Below, piece by piece: positions 3,547-58,045 of a stretch of 64,000 nt of DNA. The stretch's first letter is position 1. Every line of letters starts with the position of its first letter. Both the position numbers and the translations under genes were made by a program. Origin of the DNA: a virus. The stretch is from IMG/VR virus record IMGVR_UViG_3300044971_004534; one strand, written 5' to 3'. A model generated the notes under the pieces. It saw nothing but the letters and a program-made list of their open reading frames with translations. It made no database searches and had not been told where the DNA came from.

Positions 3547-4101
3547 ATGAGTGTGTCCGAAGAGCACTCAGAAATTTTAAACCAGAAAATTGGTTCTTTC
3601 TCGCAGCATCGTGTTGCGTGTGAGAGGCTGTCTTGGCACAAATACTTTTTTGATCTTTCATATCTTGTTGCTGCTCGGTCTCCAGACGCTCAAACAAGGC
3701 ATGGAGCAGTAATCGTAGATAAAGAAAACAGGATTGTTTCTACTGGCTATAACGGATTCCCAGCCAACGGTCCTGATGAAATTTTGCCCAATGTTCGTCC
3801 AGAGAAGTATCCATACATAGTGCATGCAGAGATGAACGCCCTACTGTCGGCACGGTGCGATGTGCGTGGATACTCTGTGTACATCACTGGAATGCCGTGC
3901 AAAAATTGTCTTCTTCACCTGATTGGTGCTGGGATCTCAAAAATTTTTGCAGGCCATACCAAATTTCAAGAAGACCTTGAATCCATGATCGCAAAGGCTG
4001 TTCTGTGCGAGGTTTACGGTGTAGAAGTATACACCCATGCACAGGGTAGTCACGATAAAATCGTTCCCTGGGACCACAAGAAGTGGATTTCAGGGGCTTG
4101 A
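3547..4101 (+). CDS. dCMP deaminase (ComEB/dCMP_cyt_deam family)
   Basis: HAEMNAL zinc/catalytic motif and PCKNCLLHL second zinc motif. VIVDKENRIVSTGYNG core typical of dCMP deaminases. Confidence 0.85.
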   Translation: MSVSEEHSEILNQKIGSFSQHRVACERLSWHKYFFDLSYLVAARSPDAQTRHGAVIVDKENRIVSTGYNGFPANGPDEILPNVRPEKYPYIVHAEMNALLSARCDVRGYSVYITGMPCKNCLLHLIGAGISKIFAGHTKFQEDLESMIAKAVLCEVYGVEVYTHAQGSHDKIVPWDHKKWISGA

Positions 4102-4153
4102 CAGCATGACAAGTATACAGTATACTGTTGGTCCCCATTCGCAAGGAGGAAAC

Positions 4154-4999
4154 ATGGGTCTTGATAACGATAGGAAGTCGTTTTTGGTTGAAAAAATTAA
4201 GAAAGACATCTCTTTCATCAACACATCTTTGTTGACGACGGATCAGATGGTGGTTAGCTATGGTCGTTTGGTTGATCGTACTGCTAACAACAGCGTCAAT
4301 CATAAGACTATGGGCGTGGAGAATGTCATTTGGTTTACCGAGGAGGAAGAAAAAGAGTTTTTCTCTCTGTATGGTAGTGCTCGTGCTGACTTCATCCACA
4401 ATCAGAATGACATCGACATGGAGAAGATGCTTGAAGATGTCATGCGAATTCGCACTATTTTGATTTATCAGCACATGCCTATGGTGCAGGCATGGGTGCG
4501 CAGGCAGATGTCCAAGCGCTCCAAGAATAGGCACCATCTTACCATTGAAGATAAAAATAGCGAAGGGCTTCGTGTGCTCCTCAACTGCATCGACAGGTTC
4601 GATTGCAGCAAACAGACCAAGTTTTTGGGTTATCTCTTTAGAGCCTTGGACAATCTCGTCTTGAAGGACGTTAGGGACAATAAAAAGAGACAAAAAGACA
4701 TTGAGATGGACCTGGTTGATGTCTCTCATGTCAGAGATAGAGCTAGCGAGCTTTCCCCTGTCCTTGTTGAAGTCAAGGATATTTGGGAAGGATGCAGTGG
4801 CGACAATGGTGCTGCTGCCTTTCTGACTGATTTTGAAAGGTCTATCATCCTCCATGAGTTTGGCGATGATTTTGCCGATTTGGTACAGGATGAAAGGGCC
4901 AAGTCTTTGAATATTAACTTGGCCACCTTTAGAAAGAAGAGAAAGAATGCTATTCAAAAGATCAAAGAGGCAATCTTCTCGCGTCTTAATCTCCACTAG
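4154..4999 (+). CDS. sigma-70 family RNA polymerase sigma factor (divergent, phage-type)
   Basis: Region-2-like EGLRVLLNCIDRFDCSKQTKFLGYLFRALDNLVLKDVR and region-4-like FERSIILHEFGDD...LNINLATFRKKRKNAIQKIKEAI. Start chosen at ATG 4154 behind AAGGAGGA; ATG 4106 is an alternative. Confidence 0.7.
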   Translation: MGLDNDRKSFLVEKIKKDISFINTSLLTTDQMVVSYGRLVDRTANNSVNHKTMGVENVIWFTEEEEKEFFSLYGSARADFIHNQNDIDMEKMLEDVMRIRTILIYQHMPMVQAWVRRQMSKRSKNRHHLTIEDKNSEGLRVLLNCIDRFDCSKQTKFLGYLFRALDNLVLKDVRDNKKRQKDIEMDLVDVSHVRDRASELSPVLVEVKDIWEGCSGDNGAAAFLTDFERSIILHEFGDDFADLVQDERAKSLNINLATFRKKRKNAIQKIKEAIFSRLNLH

Positions 5000-9228: not shown

Positions 9229-10009
9229 TGTGAAATCTTCAAAATATGCTGCTATGGTTTTTTCTCGTTCCGGCATGTGCAATGACTTCATTGCAAATCT
9301 CAGGCCAGAAGAGAACAACTTATTGCTTGCTTGTAGCGGCGGACCTGATAGTGCAGCCATGATCGGTATTGCAAGAGTTTTGCTGAATCGTGGTCTTATC
9401 AAAAAAGCTGATGTTGTTCACGTAAATCACAATCTAAGAGATGAGGCTATGCTTGATGCAGAGGTTTGTGAGAATCAAGCTAATATGTTTGGTCTTCCAT
9501 TCTTTTATTACGATGTATATCCATCTATGTCTAATAAAAATTTATATGAGGCTGGCAGGGAGCTGAGATATCAGATTCTTCAGCATCACGCTTTAAGGCA
9601 TAATAGTCATGTAATCATGACCGCTCATCATGCTGACGACATTGCAGAGACGGTTATGATGCATTTGGCAAGAGGTTGCGGAGCTAATGGTCTTTGTGGC
9701 GTCCATGAAAGAAACTCTTCTTTTGGTCACGTTGACGTTGTTCGCCCTCTCTTGAAGGCGAGGAAAAAGAAGCTAGAAGAACTCTGCGAAAAAGCGGGAA
9801 TCGAGTACTGCGTAGACAAATCAAATTTTAATACTGAAAAATCTAGAGCTTATATCCGGCACTCTGTAATCCCCATGCTGGAAAAACTAAATCCAGCTTT
9901 TGTTGAACATGTTGCAAAAACGGCAATGCTCATGCAGGGTATTGTCGAGAAAGATGAATATGGGAAAATTAATAGAACAAAAAAACACTCTTCGAGCATT
10001 AAAAGCTAA
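9221..10009 (+). CDS. tilS: tRNA(Ile)-lysidine synthetase, short form (PP-loop ATPase domain)
   Basis: PP-loop LLACSGGPDSAAM and HHADDIAETVMMHLARG motif. ATG 9221 overlaps the upstream stop (ATGCTTGA). About 263 aa, so it lacks the long C-terminal domains of E. coli-type TilS. Confidence 0.75.
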   Translation: MLDVKSSKYAAMVFSRSGMCNDFIANLRPEENNLLLACSGGPDSAAMIGIARVLLNRGLIKKADVVHVNHNLRDEAMLDAEVCENQANMFGLPFFYYDVYPSMSNKNLYEAGRELRYQILQHHALRHNSHVIMTAHHADDIAETVMMHLARGCGANGLCGVHERNSSFGHVDVVRPLLKARKKKLEELCEKAGIEYCVDKSNFNTEKSRAYIRHSVIPMLEKLNPAFVEHVAKTAMLMQGIVEKDEYGKINRTKKHSSSIKS

Positions 10010-12137: not shown

Positions 12138-12166
12138 TTGACACCTCCAGCATACCGTGGTATGAT
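12138..12166 (+). promoter_or_regulatory. sigma70-type promoter TTGACA-N17-TATGAT, 6 nt upstream of ATG 12173 (leaderless arrangement)
   Basis: TTGACA at 12138-12143, 17-nt spacer, TATGAT at 12161-12166, then actggc and the ATG. Confidence 0.6.
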
Positions 12167-29245: not shown

Positions 29246-29816
29246 AAAAATATCAGAAAAAGAAAGTTTTGAATTTTGGTTTAATAACTCAGAGTTTGAT
29301 GAACATGATCAATTTGGATCAAAGTATTATGTTAATGATTTTTACAACAAGATAGTTTCTAAGCTAGATGTTCCCAAAGATGGACTTATAGTGGTTGCTG
29401 GAACTCATAAAGCGGTTTCTTTCAATATCCTGTGTGAAATGTTTGGTAGCGAGAGATGTGTTGGTTTAGATTTATACAATCCTTCAGGGCATGATAGGGT
29501 TCTCATTAAGGACTGCTTATCGCTATCTGACTCTGATGATATACCCATAGCATTCGCGCATAACGATGTTGGCAGTCTTTCTCACACCCCAGATGTGAAG
29601 ATACATACTCACAGGTGGCTAACAAAAAATATCGTTCGAGGTGGATACTTAATGGGTAACAATAATTTAAATAGAGCAAAATTTAAATTTGAAGAATATA
29701 TGATTGATAATGGATTTAATAATACTAATTTTTCAGATTTAGATGCAAGCATATTCGATGTATCTTCTTTCCCAAAAGAAAGAATAGAAGGATACATGCT
29801 CTCAAGGAAGAGATAA
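29238..29816 (+). CDS. hypothetical protein, weak Rossmann/methyltransferase-like
   Basis: LIVVAGTHKAVSF...CVGLDLYNP. ATGAATAG overlap with the upstream gene. Confidence 0.35.
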   Translation: MNRKISEKESFEFWFNNSEFDEHDQFGSKYYVNDFYNKIVSKLDVPKDGLIVVAGTHKAVSFNILCEMFGSERCVGLDLYNPSGHDRVLIKDCLSLSDSDDIPIAFAHNDVGSLSHTPDVKIHTHRWLTKNIVRGGYLMGNNNLNRAKFKFEEYMIDNGFNNTNFSDLDASIFDVSSFPKERIEGYMLSRKR

Positions 29817-29818
29817 AT

Positions 29819-30454
29819 ATGAATGATACAAATTTCGACACCTCTTTTACTCAGCTTGTTTCTTATCCTCGAACTGGTAGTCATTATGTAAGAATAGTTA
29901 TTGAGGATTGTACAGGGTCTCCATGTGCTCCAACTTCTTTTCTAGGAAATGAAGGCGTAAAGCCATGGGGTTTTCATCTTCATGATAGAATTGTTGGTAA
30001 AGGAGATGAGGGTGTGGTGTCTGGATTTGACAAAGTTATCTATTTGTATAGAAACCCGGTTGACACCATCTTTTCGCACATTAAATATCAAGGTACGGAA
30101 GATTGGATTTCAATAGCTAGCGAATATAAAATGCATTTGCTAAGATGGTTGCACAACCACTCTGACTGTAAAAGTGTTTTAGTTAAAAATTATGATGACA
30201 TATTAAGAAATCCAGTTCGTCACTTTAATGATATTCTTAATTATATTAATTTTGAAGTAGACAAGAATAGACTGTCAACGGCCATAGGAAGAACAACAAT
30301 TGGCAGAGTAAAGGCGTTAACGGACAAGATTGACAACAAAGTAGTCAGCGATAGTCATTTTGACGGAAAATACGTGATAGACAAATCTGTTTTTATTTCA
30401 AATCATGGTGAAGAAATACATAAAATGTTTGATGGAATTTATACTTATGAGTGA
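29819..30454 (+). CDS. sulfotransferase
   Basis: 5'-PSB-like SYPRTGSHYVR and KVIYLYRNPVDTIFSH (the RNP.D..S block of PAPS-dependent sulfotransferases). Confidence 0.7.
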   Translation: MNDTNFDTSFTQLVSYPRTGSHYVRIVIEDCTGSPCAPTSFLGNEGVKPWGFHLHDRIVGKGDEGVVSGFDKVIYLYRNPVDTIFSHIKYQGTEDWISIASEYKMHLLRWLHNHSDCKSVLVKNYDDILRNPVRHFNDILNYINFEVDKNRLSTAIGRTTIGRVKALTDKIDNKVVSDSHFDGKYVIDKSVFISNHGEEIHKMFDGIYTYE

Positions 30455-50974: not shown

Positions 50975-50978
50975 AAAA

Positions 50979-51068
50979 CGGATAGAGAGGGATTCGAACC
51001 CCCGGATGGTTTCTTGAACCATCGGCGGTTTAGTAAACCGCAGCCTTAAACCACTCGGCCATCTATCC
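50979..51068 (-). tRNA. tRNA-Ser, type II, with unusual anticodon ACU (A34)
   Basis: The reverse complement is GGATAGA-TG-GCCG..GGCT-GCGGT-TTACTAA-ACCGC-(21-nt variable arm)-GGGGG-TTCGAAT-CCCTC-TCTATCC-G. It aligns position by position with bacterial tRNA-Ser, and loop positions 34-36 read ACT. Confidence 0.8.
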
Positions 51069-51095
51069 ATGCCATGTATATCGGCTGCAGATCAA

Positions 51096-53984: not shown

Positions 53985-54012
53985 TTGACAGAGCGTACAA
54001 ACTGTGTATAGT
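53985..54012 (+). promoter_or_regulatory. sigma70-type promoter TTGACA-N16-TATAGT
   Basis: Consensus -35 at 53985-53990 and TATAGT at 54007-54012, about 140 nt upstream of the 54151 gene. Confidence 0.55.
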
Positions 54013-54150: not shown

Positions 54151-54759
54151 ATGGTCAAGTTTATCGCCACTCAGGATCTCAAGTCTGCCAACATCGGCAA
54201 GTCTATGACTCTGTATGAAATGTACGAGTACATTAGAGCGCACCGGGTTGAGCTTGCTGCCATGAAAAGACAAGCAGCAAATACTCGAGTTGAGTTGGAG
54301 CATTTGGTCGCAGAGATGACTTACAAGGTCGCCTCTGTGGATTGCTCCAAAAAGGCAAACAGGCTGAGAGTTTCCTTGGACGAACTTGTGAAAAACATTC
54401 GTGCCATTGAATCGTGTTCAAAAGAGATTGGTGGTCTTGACGATCAGGCAAAGTCTAAGTCTGCCAAGAAAGACGGGAAAAAGCCTTTCAGAGAATGTGT
54501 TGAGCAGTTTGTTCAGCTCAAGGGTTCTGAGCCTTTTGAGCCCACTGAAGTTGCAAGATTTGTTGCTGAATCTAGAGGGCAAGAGCTTACTAATTCTCTT
54601 AGAGTGTTTACTCACCGGATCATCAAGGACTTTGTTCTTGAGAAGCGAATCATTCAGCTTGCTCACGGCTTGTACGAAAGTTCTAGTGCCGTGAATCTTT
54701 TCTCCGAATCTGACACTTCTGTTTCGCTTGAGGATGCTGCAAAAGCAAATTGCGCTTAA
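54151..54759 (+). CDS. hypothetical protein
   Basis: 202 aa from MVKFIATQDL. AGGAG upstream. Confidence 0.55.
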   Translation: MVKFIATQDLKSANIGKSMTLYEMYEYIRAHRVELAAMKRQAANTRVELEHLVAEMTYKVASVDCSKKANRLRVSLDELVKNIRAIESCSKEIGGLDDQAKSKSAKKDGKKPFRECVEQFVQLKGSEPFEPTEVARFVAESRGQELTNSLRVFTHRIIKDFVLEKRIIQLAHGLYESSSAVNLFSESDTSVSLEDAAKANCA

Positions 54760-55407: not shown

Positions 55408-56403
55408 ATGCAAAAAACAGCAGTTATTACAGGAGTGAATGGCCAAGATGGTTCTTACCTTTCTGAGCTATTGCTTTCAAAAGGCTATAAAGTAATAGGA
55501 CTTAAGCGTAGGACTTCCACGATTAATACGTCAAGAGTTGACCATCTAATGTCTAACTCAGATTTTCAATTACGATATTATGATCTTCAAGATGGGCCTT
55601 GTATCACTCATTTACTCAATACGTACCGTGTAGATGAGCTGTACAACTTGGCTGCTCAATCTCATGTAGGTGTATCTTTTGAGATCCCGGAGTACACCTC
55701 GTATGGAATTTGCCAGGGAACAATAAAGATACTAGAAGCAATACGCTCTTCAAGTCCGCACACAAAGTTCTATCAGGCTTCTTCTTCTGAGATGTATGGA
55801 GACAGCACTGATTATGATGACAATCAGGCTTTCAATGAGGAAAGTCGAATGCTTCCGGTATCTCCGTATGCATGCTCTAAATTGCACGCACACCACATGA
55901 CTCGTGTTTATCGTAATGCCTATGGGATGCATGCTTCTTCAGGAATACTTTTTAATCACGAAAGTCCGCGTCGTGGAGAAACTTTTGTAACACGAAAGAT
56001 TACGATGGCTGCTGCGAAGATTAAACTTGGGAAGCAAAGAAAGTTGAGTCTAGGAAATTTGGATGCCCAAAGAGACTGGGGTCATGCCGCTGACTACGTA
56101 GAAGCGATGTGGTTAATGCTACAGCAGTCCACTGGAGATGATTACGTGGTTGCAACGAATGAAACTTACACGGTCAGAGATTTCTTAAAAGTAGTTTTTG
56201 ACTATGCTGGACTAGGAGATTACAACCAATATGTCGTAATAGATCAGCGTCTTTTTAGGCCTAATGAAGTTCCTTTCTTGAAGGGAAACCCAGCAAAGGC
56301 CATATCAAGATTGGGGTGGAAGCCGAAGCATAGCATGGAGTCTCTTGCAAAGAGCATGTTTGATGAAGATCTAAAACTTTTAACAGAAAAGGTTTCAATA
56401 TGA
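55408..56403 (+). CDS. gmd: GDP-mannose 4,6-dehydratase
   Basis: VITGVNGQDGSYLSELLLSKGY, YACSKLHAH (YxxxK) and LFNHESPRRGETFVTRKI, all hallmark Gmd blocks. Confidence 0.9.
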   Translation: MQKTAVITGVNGQDGSYLSELLLSKGYKVIGLKRRTSTINTSRVDHLMSNSDFQLRYYDLQDGPCITHLLNTYRVDELYNLAAQSHVGVSFEIPEYTSYGICQGTIKILEAIRSSSPHTKFYQASSSEMYGDSTDYDDNQAFNEESRMLPVSPYACSKLHAHHMTRVYRNAYGMHASSGILFNHESPRRGETFVTRKITMAAAKIKLGKQRKLSLGNLDAQRDWGHAADYVEAMWLMLQQSTGDDYVVATNETYTVRDFLKVVFDYAGLGDYNQYVVIDQRLFRPNEVPFLKGNPAKAISRLGWKPKHSMESLAKSMFDEDLKLLTEKVSI

Positions 56404-56801
56404 GTAAGAAAAAAGATAGTTCAAAGAAGAGCGGGGGAAAGAAGCAGTCCAAGAAAGATGTGAAGAAGGAAAAGAAGTCGGCAAAGAAGACTGAGCCTAA
56501 GCCAATGAAGCCACAATTTGTGTGGCCAAAAGACGAGCCTGCCATGAAGAAAGATCCAGTCGTTTCTGAAGAAGTAAAAGAAGAGACTCTTCATCCAGAA
56601 GAAGCAGGTTTTGCGTCTTTTGAAGAGCCAAAGCTAAATGGCACTGAAACTCCGTTTGTATTTACAAGTCATGTTTCAGTGAGTACTTCTGCTAATTTTG
56701 ATCACGTGAAAGAAAAAGCAGCAAATTTTGCTGAAAAAACTCAGAATGACATCAAGAAAATGTGGAAGACTTTCATCAGAAAGATGAAGGGGTTGGCTTG
56801 A
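56400..56801 (+). CDS. hypothetical protein with Lys-rich N-terminal tail
   Basis: ATGA overlap with the gmd stop. N-terminus MSKKKDSSKKSGGKKQSKKDVKKEKKSAKK. Confidence 0.55.
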   Translation: MSKKKDSSKKSGGKKQSKKDVKKEKKSAKKTEPKPMKPQFVWPKDEPAMKKDPVVSEEVKEETLHPEEAGFASFEEPKLNGTETPFVFTSHVSVSTSANFDHVKEKAANFAEKTQNDIKKMWKTFIRKMKGLA

Positions 56802-57044: not shown

Positions 57045-57073
57045 TTGACAAGAGTATAGCACAGTGCTATGCT
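57045..57073 (+). promoter_or_regulatory. sigma70-type promoter TTGACA-N17-TATGCT upstream of csrA
   Basis: TTGACA at 57045-57050 and TATGCT at 57068-57073. A 5' UTR hairpin GAAAGC-ACGGT-GCTTTC lies at 57080-57096. Confidence 0.6.
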
Positions 57074-57118
57074 ACTTATGAAAGCACGGTGCTTTCAACA
57101 CTCTAGCCAAGGAAGGTT

Positions 57119-57304
57119 ATGCAAAAAGAAAAAAAGGTTTTGGTAGTTTCTAGAAAAGTCGGTGAAGTGGTCGTGATTGGAGAGCCCACCAACCCTCTCG
57201 GTGAAGTCGAAATCGTGAAGGTTGAGGGTGGAAAGGTCAGAATCGCGTTCCGCTTTCCAGAAGACGTGAAAATCAATCGTGAAGAAGTTGCGCTGACTAA
57301 GTAA
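57119..57304 (+). CDS. csrA: carbon storage regulator CsrA/RsmA homologue
   Basis: LVVSRKVGEVVVIG...VKVEGGKVRIAFRFPEDVKINREEV is collinear with CsrA (LILTRRVGE..IG...V.G..VRIG..AP..V.VHREE). 61 aa. AAGGAAGG RBS. Confidence 0.8.
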   Translation: MQKEKKVLVVSRKVGEVVVIGEPTNPLGEVEIVKVEGGKVRIAFRFPEDVKINREEVALTK

Positions 57305-57323
57305 TCTTTTTCACTCAGCATTT

Positions 57324-57363
57324 AAAGGCTGTACACAAAAATGTGTGCAGCCTTTATCTTTTT
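57324..57363 (+). terminator. intrinsic terminator after csrA
   Basis: 14-bp stem AAAGGCTGTACACA / TGTGTGCAGCCTTT (one G-U pair), AAAA loop, followed by ATCTTTTT. Confidence 0.7.
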
Positions 57364-57400
57364 ACCACGCTCATGGATATTAACCAATACGGAGATATCC

Positions 57401-58045
57401 ATGGGAGCGAACGATCCAACTACCGCTTACATCATAATTGAACACTCTGACGGCAAGTATTATTCTTATCGTGAAAGCGTTGATCATTTCAAAGTAGCAG
57501 AGGAAACCAGAAGCAAGTCTGGTCTTAAAAAAGTTTCAGAAACACTGCTAGATGAAGACTGCGATCTATCAAGTCTTCCAAACAACACTTATATTGTATT
57601 AAATGTTAATTCAAAGCAGTCTTGTGGAAACGCAAGAAGCACCGATTTGATGATCGATATGTGGGGAGAAAAGTGCGAAGAGTACGAATCATTGTGCTCT
57701 GCCTGCATAGCTTGGACTATTTATGAATCAACGGGCACTGTTCCCTTGACTAGTGAAGTTTCAGAAAAAATCCAAGCACTAAAAAGAAATTCATCTTCAA
57801 CTTCAAAGGCTGCAAACATATCTCACTGGAACTGCAGGCTCGTTAGAAAATTCTATGAAGAATCTGACGAATACTACGTTGCGGTCTATGAGGTTTACTA
57901 TGACGAAAATGGTGATCCTATTTTACGTACTGAAGAGCCAGTTCATGTTGACGGCAGCACTGTAAAAGAAGTTGAGAAATATCTCAAATTGATCAAAAAG
58001 GCAATGAAAAAGCCTGTACTGGATGATTCTATTTTTAACAAGTGA
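57401..58045 (+). CDS. hypothetical protein
   Basis: 214 aa from MGANDPTT. GGAG upstream. The longer ORF would begin inside the terminator. Confidence 0.55.
   Translation: MGANDPTTAYIIIEHSDGKYYSYRESVDHFKVAEETRSKSGLKKVSETLLDEDCDLSSLPNNTYIVLNVNSKQSCGNARSTDLMIDMWGEKCEEYESLCSACIAWTIYESTGTVPLTSEVSEKIQALKRNSSSTSKAANISHWNCRLVRKFYEESDEYYVAVYEVYYDENGDPILRTEEPVHVDGSTVKEVEKYLKLIKKAMKKPVLDDSIFNK

Follow-up and report, generated by a model that had tools for sequence, protein, structure and literature searches.

Escherichia coli CsrA, a translational regulator of the CsrA/RsmA family, represses its own translation through a site that overlaps the Shine-Dalgarno (SD) sequence of its messenger (PMC7652899). 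Homologues carried by mobile elements are documented (PMC8450108; PMC7366521). Phage carriers include Pseudomonas phages F116 and phi297, Burkholderia phage DC1, Vibrio phages and the Xanthomonas jumbo phage PhiXhv-12, and other copies reside in Legionella integrative and conjugative elements and on a Sinorhizobium plasmid; the phage proteins form PHROG 9500. The presence of CsrA in phage and host has been reported as correlated, and phage CsrA has been proposed to manipulate the post-transcriptional control of the host, CRISPR-Cas included (PMC8450108). At least 47 phage records in GenBank encode CsrA, among them 227-kb Xanthomonas jumbo phages whose product is annotated as 'translational regulator CsrA'. 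Virus-encoded CsrA is already known, jumbo phages included. Here we describe a csrA-family gene found at positions 57119-57304 of a 64,000-nucleotide stretch of viral DNA (IMG/VR record IMGVR_UViG_3300044971_004534; hereafter, the window), which belongs to a very large uncultivated freshwater phage of ~400 kb.

We hold with moderate confidence that this gene encodes a functional, divergent RNA-binding translational regulator of the CsrA/RsmA family. The product has the Pfam family, the predicted fold and the critical residues of canonical proteins such as E. coli CsrA (1Y00) and Pseudomonas fluorescens RsmE (2JPP), and the gene, like E. coli csrA, carries on its own SD a GGA site that matches the sequence CANGGANG. 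The latter is the core of the Rsm/CsrA consensus of Schubert et al. (2007), as quoted in PMC6849547. Differences from the canonical systems are, however, found at several levels. The phage protein is only 35-39% identical to E. coli CsrA, RsmE and Bacillus subtilis CsrA and remains below the NCBIfam equivalog cut-offs; it has a four-residue insertion between beta2 and beta3, a six-residue Lys-rich N-terminal extension and a stub in place of the C-terminal helix. Its leader harbors one candidate site instead of four, and the window contains no sponge RNA of the CsrB/RsmZ type.

The nearest cellular relatives that we found are long-loop CsrA proteins of Planctomycetota (Phycisphaerae), exemplified by MLALTRRVGEEVVIGDPxxPxG, which are 46-55% identical to the phage protein and share with it the insertion (IGxPxNPxG) and an AFxFP motif. 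Many of their genes also place the GGA of the SD in a hairpin loop. The bacterial proteins, however, start at ML without an N-terminal extension, and their C-terminal helix or tail has at least 10 residues. The phage CsrAs described so far are said to be 'highly similar' to host CsrA (PMC8450108) and are mostly of the gammaproteobacterial type, while the window protein is Planctomycetota-like and shorter; none of them was matched by tblastn at E <= 0.01. In PhiXhv-12 the csrA gene has a GGA-containing SD as well (CACGGAG), and the protein shows a three-residue insertion in the same loop.

The csrA product is a divergent member of the CsrA/RsmA family

The coding sequence (CDS) is the following:

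57119-57304, + strand: csrA-family CDS, 61 amino acids, ATG start, with Pfam, PHROG, PDB and Foldseek matches

A sequence-only reading of the window, made by a model from the letters and the open reading frames (ORFs), had assigned this product to CsrA/RsmA, and all four kinds of match agree with the assignment. The Pfam profile PF02599 gives 42.8 bits against a cut-off of 27, with residues 8-58 lying on profile positions 2-48 of 53. PHROG 9500, 'CsrA-like regulator', is matched with E = 6.5e-8, and solved structures of Yersinia, E. coli and Pseudomonas CsrA/RsmE align over residues 7-57 (E ~4e-5). An AlphaFold2 model of the monomer (pLDDT 71.6) shows three beta elements, and its top 15 PDB matches in Foldseek are exclusively CsrA, RsmA and RsmE structures, with TM scores of 0.57-0.62.

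The residues that contact RNA in CsrA were then located in the phage protein. In beta1, L2 corresponds to L8, L4 to V10, R6 to R12 and R7 to K13; in beta5, V40 corresponds to V50, V42 to I52, R44 to R54, E46 to E56 and I47 to V57. L8, R12, R54 and E56 are invariant in 26 aligned sequences, three reference proteins included. L4 and R44 have been singled out as critical in CsrA (PMC7652899). The equivalent of Arg44, which the sequence-only reading had proposed as a check, is thus present as R54, and the remaining key contacts are kept as well.

Outside the conserved fold, the protein begins with six extra residues, mostly Lys (MQKEKK), and carries the four-residue insertion in the beta2-beta3 turn (PTNPLG region). 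Because the chain stops four residues past the I47 equivalent, the C-terminal helix can be at most a stub. The strands of the dimer core are all present. Two points weigh against the reading as a functional CsrA: the N-terminal extension adjoins beta1, so that RNA binding could be altered, and the cut-offs of the NCBIfam csrA equivalogs TIGR00202, NF002469 and NF001844 are missed (41.7 vs 70.1, 38.9 vs 73 and 26.2 vs 106, respectively). By these profile scores, the protein is a divergent family member and not an equivalog of housekeeping CsrA.

The identical 61-aa protein is encoded on many metagenomic contigs, which recur across samples, come from 72 index blocks and reach 406,003 bp, and four more protein haplotypes were found at 85, 84, 80 and 70% identity. 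Across haplotypes, the invariant codons number 39, 53 and 7 of 61 at codon positions 1, 2 and 3, respectively. With neutral sites near saturation, this pattern indicates that csrA is under strong purifying selection. An alternative TTG start at 57140 was considered and rejected, since two haplotypes have TTA there; the ATG and the SD, by contrast, never vary, which argues that the ATG start is real. An antisense ORF at 57103-57321 (72 aa) is merely a shadow of the csrA frame.

Relatives and possible origin of the gene

An exhaustive HMMER search retrieved 989 relatives at E <= 0.001. The nearest, with 48% identity, come from another, more distant lineage of megaphages whose contigs are up to 280 kb long, and there csrA occupies the same syntenic spot; the gene has therefore long been a stable part of this phage family. 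Next come long-loop CsrA proteins with the same four-residue insertion (IGxPxNPxG; IGDPxNPxG) and 46-55% identity. Three of the long-loop relatives, P0006 (138 aa), P0008 (219 aa) and P0009 (208 aa), have two CsrA domains per polypeptide and would be covalently linked 'dimers'; P0008 and P0009 have an additional C-terminal domain.

One subset of the long-loop type was also sought in a scan of species-representative genomes, which yielded 118 loci; among the 80 listed, almost all are from Planctomycetota, mostly Phycisphaerae. The pattern used was Phycisphaerae-specific and the taxonomic result is accordingly biased, so that the scan shows that Planctomycetota have the long-loop type, not that they alone do. 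A 2026 survey found CsrA to be common in Planctomycetota, among other phyla, and rare in Bacteroidota (PMC13443453).

The kinship with Planctomycetota proteins suggests that the csrA gene came from that phylum, and weakly suggests that the phage has a Planctomycetota host range. Base composition speaks against both ideas: the G+C content of the phage is ~35-40%, far below that of the G+C-rich genomes of Planctomycetota, and caution is therefore needed on origin and host alike.

Conserved transcription signals flank csrA

Three elements related to transcription or to the ends of the messenger were delimited:

57045-57073, + strand: sigma70-type promoter TTGACA-N17-TATGCT with TG extension; 10/12 match, recurring in the haplotypes

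57080-57096, + strand: 5'-terminal stem-loop GAAAGCA-CGG-UGCUUUC in the minimum-energy fold, with a 7-bp stem and a CGG loop

57323-57363, + strand: Rho-independent terminator with a 15-bp stem, an AAAA loop and then UAUCUUUUU; the stem spans 57323-57356 and the T-run extends to 57363

In the 50-64 kb region, the csrA promoter ranks second of 32 promoter-like sites, and the csrA terminator is by far the strongest terminator-like site. The numbers of such sites are not in excess over shuffled sequences (32 vs 30.9 for promoter-like sites, 9 vs 10.5 for terminator-like sites), and therefore consensus matches alone prove nothing. Folding energies set the terminator apart, with -23.2 kcal/mol (z = -6.4) in the window and -24.2 kcal/mol (z = -5.8) in the L011 orthologue. 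The fold of the leader alone was not significant against shuffles (z = -1.5).

Conservation was examined in an alignment of the cassette that comprised seven distinct sequences from five protein haplotypes. Segments were scored for invariant columns:

-35 hexamer: 5/6

Promoter spacer: 3/17

-10 hexamer: 4/6

5' hairpin: 3/17

Linker: 2/8

SD block (57105-57121): 17/17

3' untranslated region: 6/18

Terminator stem-loop: 21/34

T-tail: 7/7

Ribosome-binding site (RBS) of the next gene: 7/18

In neighbouring non-coding stretches, 12-33% of the columns are invariant. Base pairing was also counted on this alignment: 88% of the cells are paired, compared with 53% at most when the partners are slid, and both the terminator and the 5' hairpin include two pairs with changes on both sides. 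Conservation by segment and pair counts together indicate that the promoter, the 5' hairpin and the terminator are real conserved features. The promoter had been noticed in the sequence-only reading and holds in the orthologous loci: TTGAC is invariant, the 17-nt spacing is kept in the five haplotypes, and the -10 element is TATGCT, TATACT or TACACT. The terminator proposed in the same reading is also there, strong and conserved, except that folding gives its stem 15 pairs instead of 14.

Transcription is predicted to start at ~57080, seven bases past the -10 element, which would place the hairpin at the very 5' end of the messenger. Each of the five haplotypes has a hairpin at the predicted +1, as does the distant L027 lineage, and the sequences differ. 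The loop is CGG in the window; the other haplotypes have GCGU, AUGC, CAU or ACGU and the distant lineage has AAG, and none of these contains GGA. Because the loops lack GGA and are not conserved, this hairpin does not fit a CsrA site, and the sequence-only proposal of a binding site in its GG-containing loop finds no support, although the hairpin itself exists. Certain 5'-terminal stem-loops are known to protect bacterial mRNAs from decay that depends on the 5' end. The position of the csrA hairpin at +1 and a shape kept through sequence change fit better with a putative role as a 5'-terminal stabiliser of the mRNA.

Promoter and terminator give csrA signals of its own. The description of the cassette as self-contained, however, goes too far at both borders: no terminator was found upstream of the csrA promoter, so that the upstream operon is not separated from the cassette, and the stretch from the csrA terminator to the following gene contains no sigma70-like promoter. 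The terminator is absent in the L027 lineage. In that lineage, a region of ~640 nt before csrA (L027 9360-10000) has one small membrane-protein ORF as its sole ORF, and a long inverted repeat, CCCACCTCTG...CAGAGGTGGG, lies upstream of csrA around 9618-9695.

The translation-initiation block is a candidate autoregulatory site

The region around the start codon makes up a further element:

57104-57121, + strand: translation-initiation block with a possible hairpin, UAGCC[AAGGAA]GGUUA (loop in brackets), at 57104-57119, the 3' arm of which abuts the AUG

The SD, AAGGAAGG, lies at 57109-57116, where the sequence-only reading had placed it, and occurs once in the window. The leader is 39 nt long and contains exactly one GGA, which is that of the SD and sits in the hexaloop of a possible 5-bp hairpin. 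At 57108-57115, the sequence CAAGGAAG is an exact match to the core CANGGANG, an arrangement that the sequence-only reading had overlooked. CsrA ligands selected by SELEX (in vitro selection) have short stems and six-base loops (PMC7652899), and the csrA hairpin, with a 4-5 bp stem and a 6-nt loop, agrees with that archetype. On both strands of the window (128 kb) there are 32 matches to CANGGANG; the one at the csrA SD has the longest flanking stem.

Comparative evidence points in the same direction. The block is invariant at all of its 17 columns, as opposed to 2/8 and 3/17 in the adjacent leader segments. No invariant run in a 5.2-kb four-way alignment is longer; two others equal it, and both of these overlap coding sequence. 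The invariant AGCC on the 5' side of the SD takes no part in pairing with 16S rRNA, yet it is the partner of GGUU in the hairpin. Similar arrangements are found at the SD of other csrA genes: UAAC[AUGGAG]GUUA in an unrelated phage (L112), and AGCAA[GGGA]UUGCU and GCAA[AGGA]UUGC in the distant megaphage lineages L111 and L027, respectively. Among 75 distinct leaders of Phycisphaerae csrA genes, a hairpin with GGA in the loop and a stem of at least 4 bp occurs at the SD in 26, compared with 14.5 expected.

Other observations weigh against autoregulation through this site:

(i). The hairpin is weak (-4.1 kcal/mol), no better than shuffles (z = -0.4). It never varies and thus offers no covariation; a metagenome scan for intermediate lineages yielded copies identical to those of known haplotypes and unrelated CsrAs only.

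(ii). The leader has a single GGA, and the other GGAs of the transcript, those in the CDS included, are not conserved. High-affinity binding by CsrA usually bridges two sites (PMC7652899). The SD had been called GGA-rich and the leader had been read as offering two sites; neither description survives.

(iii). A lax rule that accepts any GGA in a loop is met by 32-35% of the GGA-type RBSs in these phages. Given this background, the rule was replaced by the strict core CANGGANG plus stem length. The leaders of L027 and L111 fall outside the strict core.

(iv). A second 17-nt invariant run occurs at an RBS, at 56379-56395, where it overlaps coding sequence. Strong conservation of an RBS is therefore not unique to csrA.

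The latter run belongs to a longer region, 56379-56410 (+ strand), in which the GDP-mannose dehydratase gene meets the following ORF (ATG at 56400) and which contains invariant runs of 17 nt and 11 nt in four haplotypes.

The same observations can be accommodated by a simpler explanation, to which we grant a substantial chance, short of even: CsrA works, but its leader is not autoregulatory. The block would be a very strong RBS (AAGGAAGG at optimal spacing) with its start codon, conserved because it secures an output that is high and constitutive; the hairpin, if it forms, would be incidental. The poor energy of the hairpin, the lone GGA, the frequency with which GGA-loop hairpins arise by chance and the equally invariant RBS nearby are all as expected from this explanation, and so is the fact that the csrA SD is among the strongest in a genome where most genes have a weak SD or none. 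What it leaves unexplained is the invariance of AGCC and of the UU between SD and AUG, which are not needed for SD pairing and are both stem positions. Neither does it explain why the best CANGGANG hairpin in 128 kb, both strands counted, should lie precisely here, why independent csrA genes share the arrangement, or why the RBS of the next gene is invariant at just 7 of 18 columns. Weighing both sides, we place autoregulation through the csrA SD site at about even odds: the hexaloop at the gene's own SD supports the notion, while the leader with two sites on which it had been founded does not exist.

Candidate targets in the phage genome

If the phage protein binds RNA as CsrA does, its targets may lie in the phage itself. 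The 32 matches to CANGGANG in the window are about twice the number in dinucleotide shuffles (17.0 +/- 3.5). Codon permutation gave 22.3 +/- 3.8, and 3 of 200 permutations reached 32; the gene model used for this control was crude. The excess is mild.

Two sites deserve description. At 29799-29814 (+ strand) lies a hexaloop hairpin of the canonical CsrA type, UCUC[AAGGAA]GAGA, placed 8 nt before an ATG at 29819. The gene behind it (29819-30454) encodes a sulfotransferase-domain protein, lies in the glycosyltransferase island of the window, and has the sole RBS of the island with such a site. The sequence-only reading had linked the viral CsrA to this glycan island; proximity and this single RBS are all that is found of the link. 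The second site precedes the gene that follows csrA (57401-58045, 214 aa, PHROG 21321). There, a hairpin at 57372-57403 (+ strand), CAUGGAUAU-[14 nt]-AUAUCCAUG, folds with -18.4 kcal/mol (z = -4.7) and places the SD (ACGGAG) in the loop and the AUG in the 3' arm of the stem. It is kept in 4 of 5 haplotypes, where C->U changes preserve pairing as G.U; the 70% lineage (P5) has lost it. This hairpin could be either a CsrA target or an element of translational occlusion. Both sites are considered leads, not findings.

T4 RegA, a small phage protein, represses translation at the RBSs of several mRNAs, its own included. By analogy, the main job of the window protein might be the timing of phage gene expression rather than the reprogramming of the host: it would bind GGA-type RBSs of phage mRNAs, its own among them, and thereby switch off or delay sets of genes. 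The likeness to RegA would be one of operation only, as the latter has an unrelated fold and sequence and recognizes, instead of GGA hairpins, AU-rich sequence in the neighbourhood of the AUG. The enrichment of CANGGANG over both controls, the canonical site before the sulfotransferase gene and the strong conserved hairpin at the gene downstream of csrA are in favor of such a role. However, the enrichment is mild and rests in part on the crude gene model, a canonical site is present at only 2-3 phage RBSs in 64 kb, most genes of the window lack any GGA near the start, and the P5 lineage is without the downstream hairpin. We consider this role possible and somewhat unlikely; host targets are, besides, compatible with it.

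Host antagonists

A further alternative is a phage protein that works as a decoy or poison instead of a conventional regulator and alters the activity of host CsrA indirectly, either by soaking up the antagonists of the latter (sponge RNAs or a FliW-like protein) or by forming mixed dimers with it. The unusual termini, which combine the Lys-rich N-terminal extension with a chain that stops four residues past the I47 equivalent, might be viewed in this light, and the strands of the dimer core are all retained. Nonetheless, the RNA-contact residues are kept under selection, which would be needless in a pure decoy for protein partners, and the loss of the C-terminal region speaks against a partner of the FliW type. 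No fliW was found beside csrA in the two Planctomycetota genomes inspected, those of Poriferisphaera sp. WC338 and Planctomycetota bacterium strain ZRK32. A search for a sponge RNA with Rfam at gathering thresholds, which covered the 64-kb window of the ~406-kb genome, detected 4 tRNAs only, and a scan of GGA density found no GGA-dense non-coding stretch in the window. We regard the decoy as very improbable.

Finally, the idea that csrA is a decaying, non-functional hitch-hiker or a chance ORF with chance matches at its flanks, for which the unremarkable counts of promoter-like and terminator-like sites and the missed equivalog thresholds could be invoked, is effectively refuted by the comparative data: the codon-position pattern, the unvarying location of csrA in lineages with identities as low as 48%, the exact protein on contigs from 72 index blocks, and the conservation of promoter, SD and terminator, compensatory changes included.

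Source phage and genomic setting

The viral nature of the element, described as a phage cassette in the sequence-only reading, was upheld: a sister lineage is present in IMG/VR, contigs reach ~406 kb, tRNA genes are scattered along the window and a phage sigma factor is encoded. The sister lineage is that with 70% identity, represented by uncultivated virus genomes and viral contigs of up to 224 kb. 'Freshwater metagenome' is the label of one record that carries the locus. The gene order is common to all haplotypes: thioredoxin, GDP-mannose dehydratase, two small ORFs, csrA, genes without assigned function and a YAcAr/SLOG protein. Many of the ORFs of the window lack any family match, and most have no assigned function.

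Attempts to place the phage gave little. Among INPHARED phages, no match was found for 5 kb by megablast or for the csrA protein by tblastn (E <= 0.01). The SNF2 helicase of the window was uninformative as a clue to the host, with ~23% identity to assorted phages. We also considered whether the lineage could be 'Moraphage' and found no evidence for it; those genomes reach 307 kb and have Bacteroidota hosts.

The window contains four tRNA genes. One of them (50978-51069, - strand) is a 92-nt tRNA-Ser detected by ARAGORN, with the anticodon ACT (an unusual A34), and adjoins a tRNA-Asn(GTT); Rfam confirmed the tRNA-Ser site as a tRNA with 53.6 bits. A sigma-factor homologue (PHROG 351; Pfam Sigma70_r2) is encoded at 4037-4999 (+ strand), just downstream of a dCMP deaminase gene (3547-4101). 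Since the phage encodes this homologue, it probably redirects the RNA polymerase of the host later in infection. Sigma70-like promoters closer to the consensus than that of csrA (11/12) are found at 53985-54012, 12138-12166 and 4098-4126 (+ strand). The first of them precedes a gene at 54151 that has a weak PIN-like match. Together with the csrA promoter, these three may mark a class of early genes.

A model for the phage regulator and its significance

Our preferred reading, that of a functional, divergent CsrA, can be developed into the following model. Early in infection, the RNA polymerase of the host would transcribe csrA into a short, mostly monocistronic mRNA, the decay of which would be slowed by the 5'-terminal hairpin. 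The protein would dimerise as CsrA does, and the dimer would bind GGA motifs exposed in short hairpin loops over SD sequences, thus blocking ribosome entry. Its own SD (UAGCC[AAGGAA]GGUUA-UG) would be among the sites bound, and as the protein accumulates it would shut off its own translation, a negative feedback that would fix the dose. Further targets would be GGA-type RBSs of host genes, phage genes or both. Because the C-terminal helix is nearly absent and the N-terminus has an extra basic segment, the protein may escape whatever restrains the CsrA of the host.

A bolder version of this model can be entertained, even if we deem it rather unlikely as a whole. The phage would carry a stripped-down CsrA of Planctomycetota-like origin that, for want of a C-terminal regulatory helix and with a basic segment added to its N-terminus, is immune to the antagonists of the host. 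Expressed early and in a self-limited manner, it would clamp GGA-type RBSs of the host, those of defence systems included, and would gate some phage genes, for instance the hairpin-occluded gene downstream of csrA. If true, a virus would here have taken over a global network of post-transcriptional control, in a phylum whose phages and Csr regulation are both, to our knowledge, unstudied.

This example does not change the knowledge of how CsrA works. What is new is the setting, a lineage of ~400-kb uncultivated freshwater phages, and the form of the protein, which combines the long-loop type otherwise seen in Planctomycetota with a longer N-terminus, a shortened C-terminus and a clean single-site leader. 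Kinship with the CsrA proteins of Planctomycetota offers a hint, weak but of a rare kind, as to which host this lineage infects. We know of no characterised CsrA from a huge environmental phage. As the locus is compact (61 aa), strongly conserved and provided with a single canonical candidate site, it makes a convenient test case for whether viral copies of CsrA autoregulate and for which targets they act upon.

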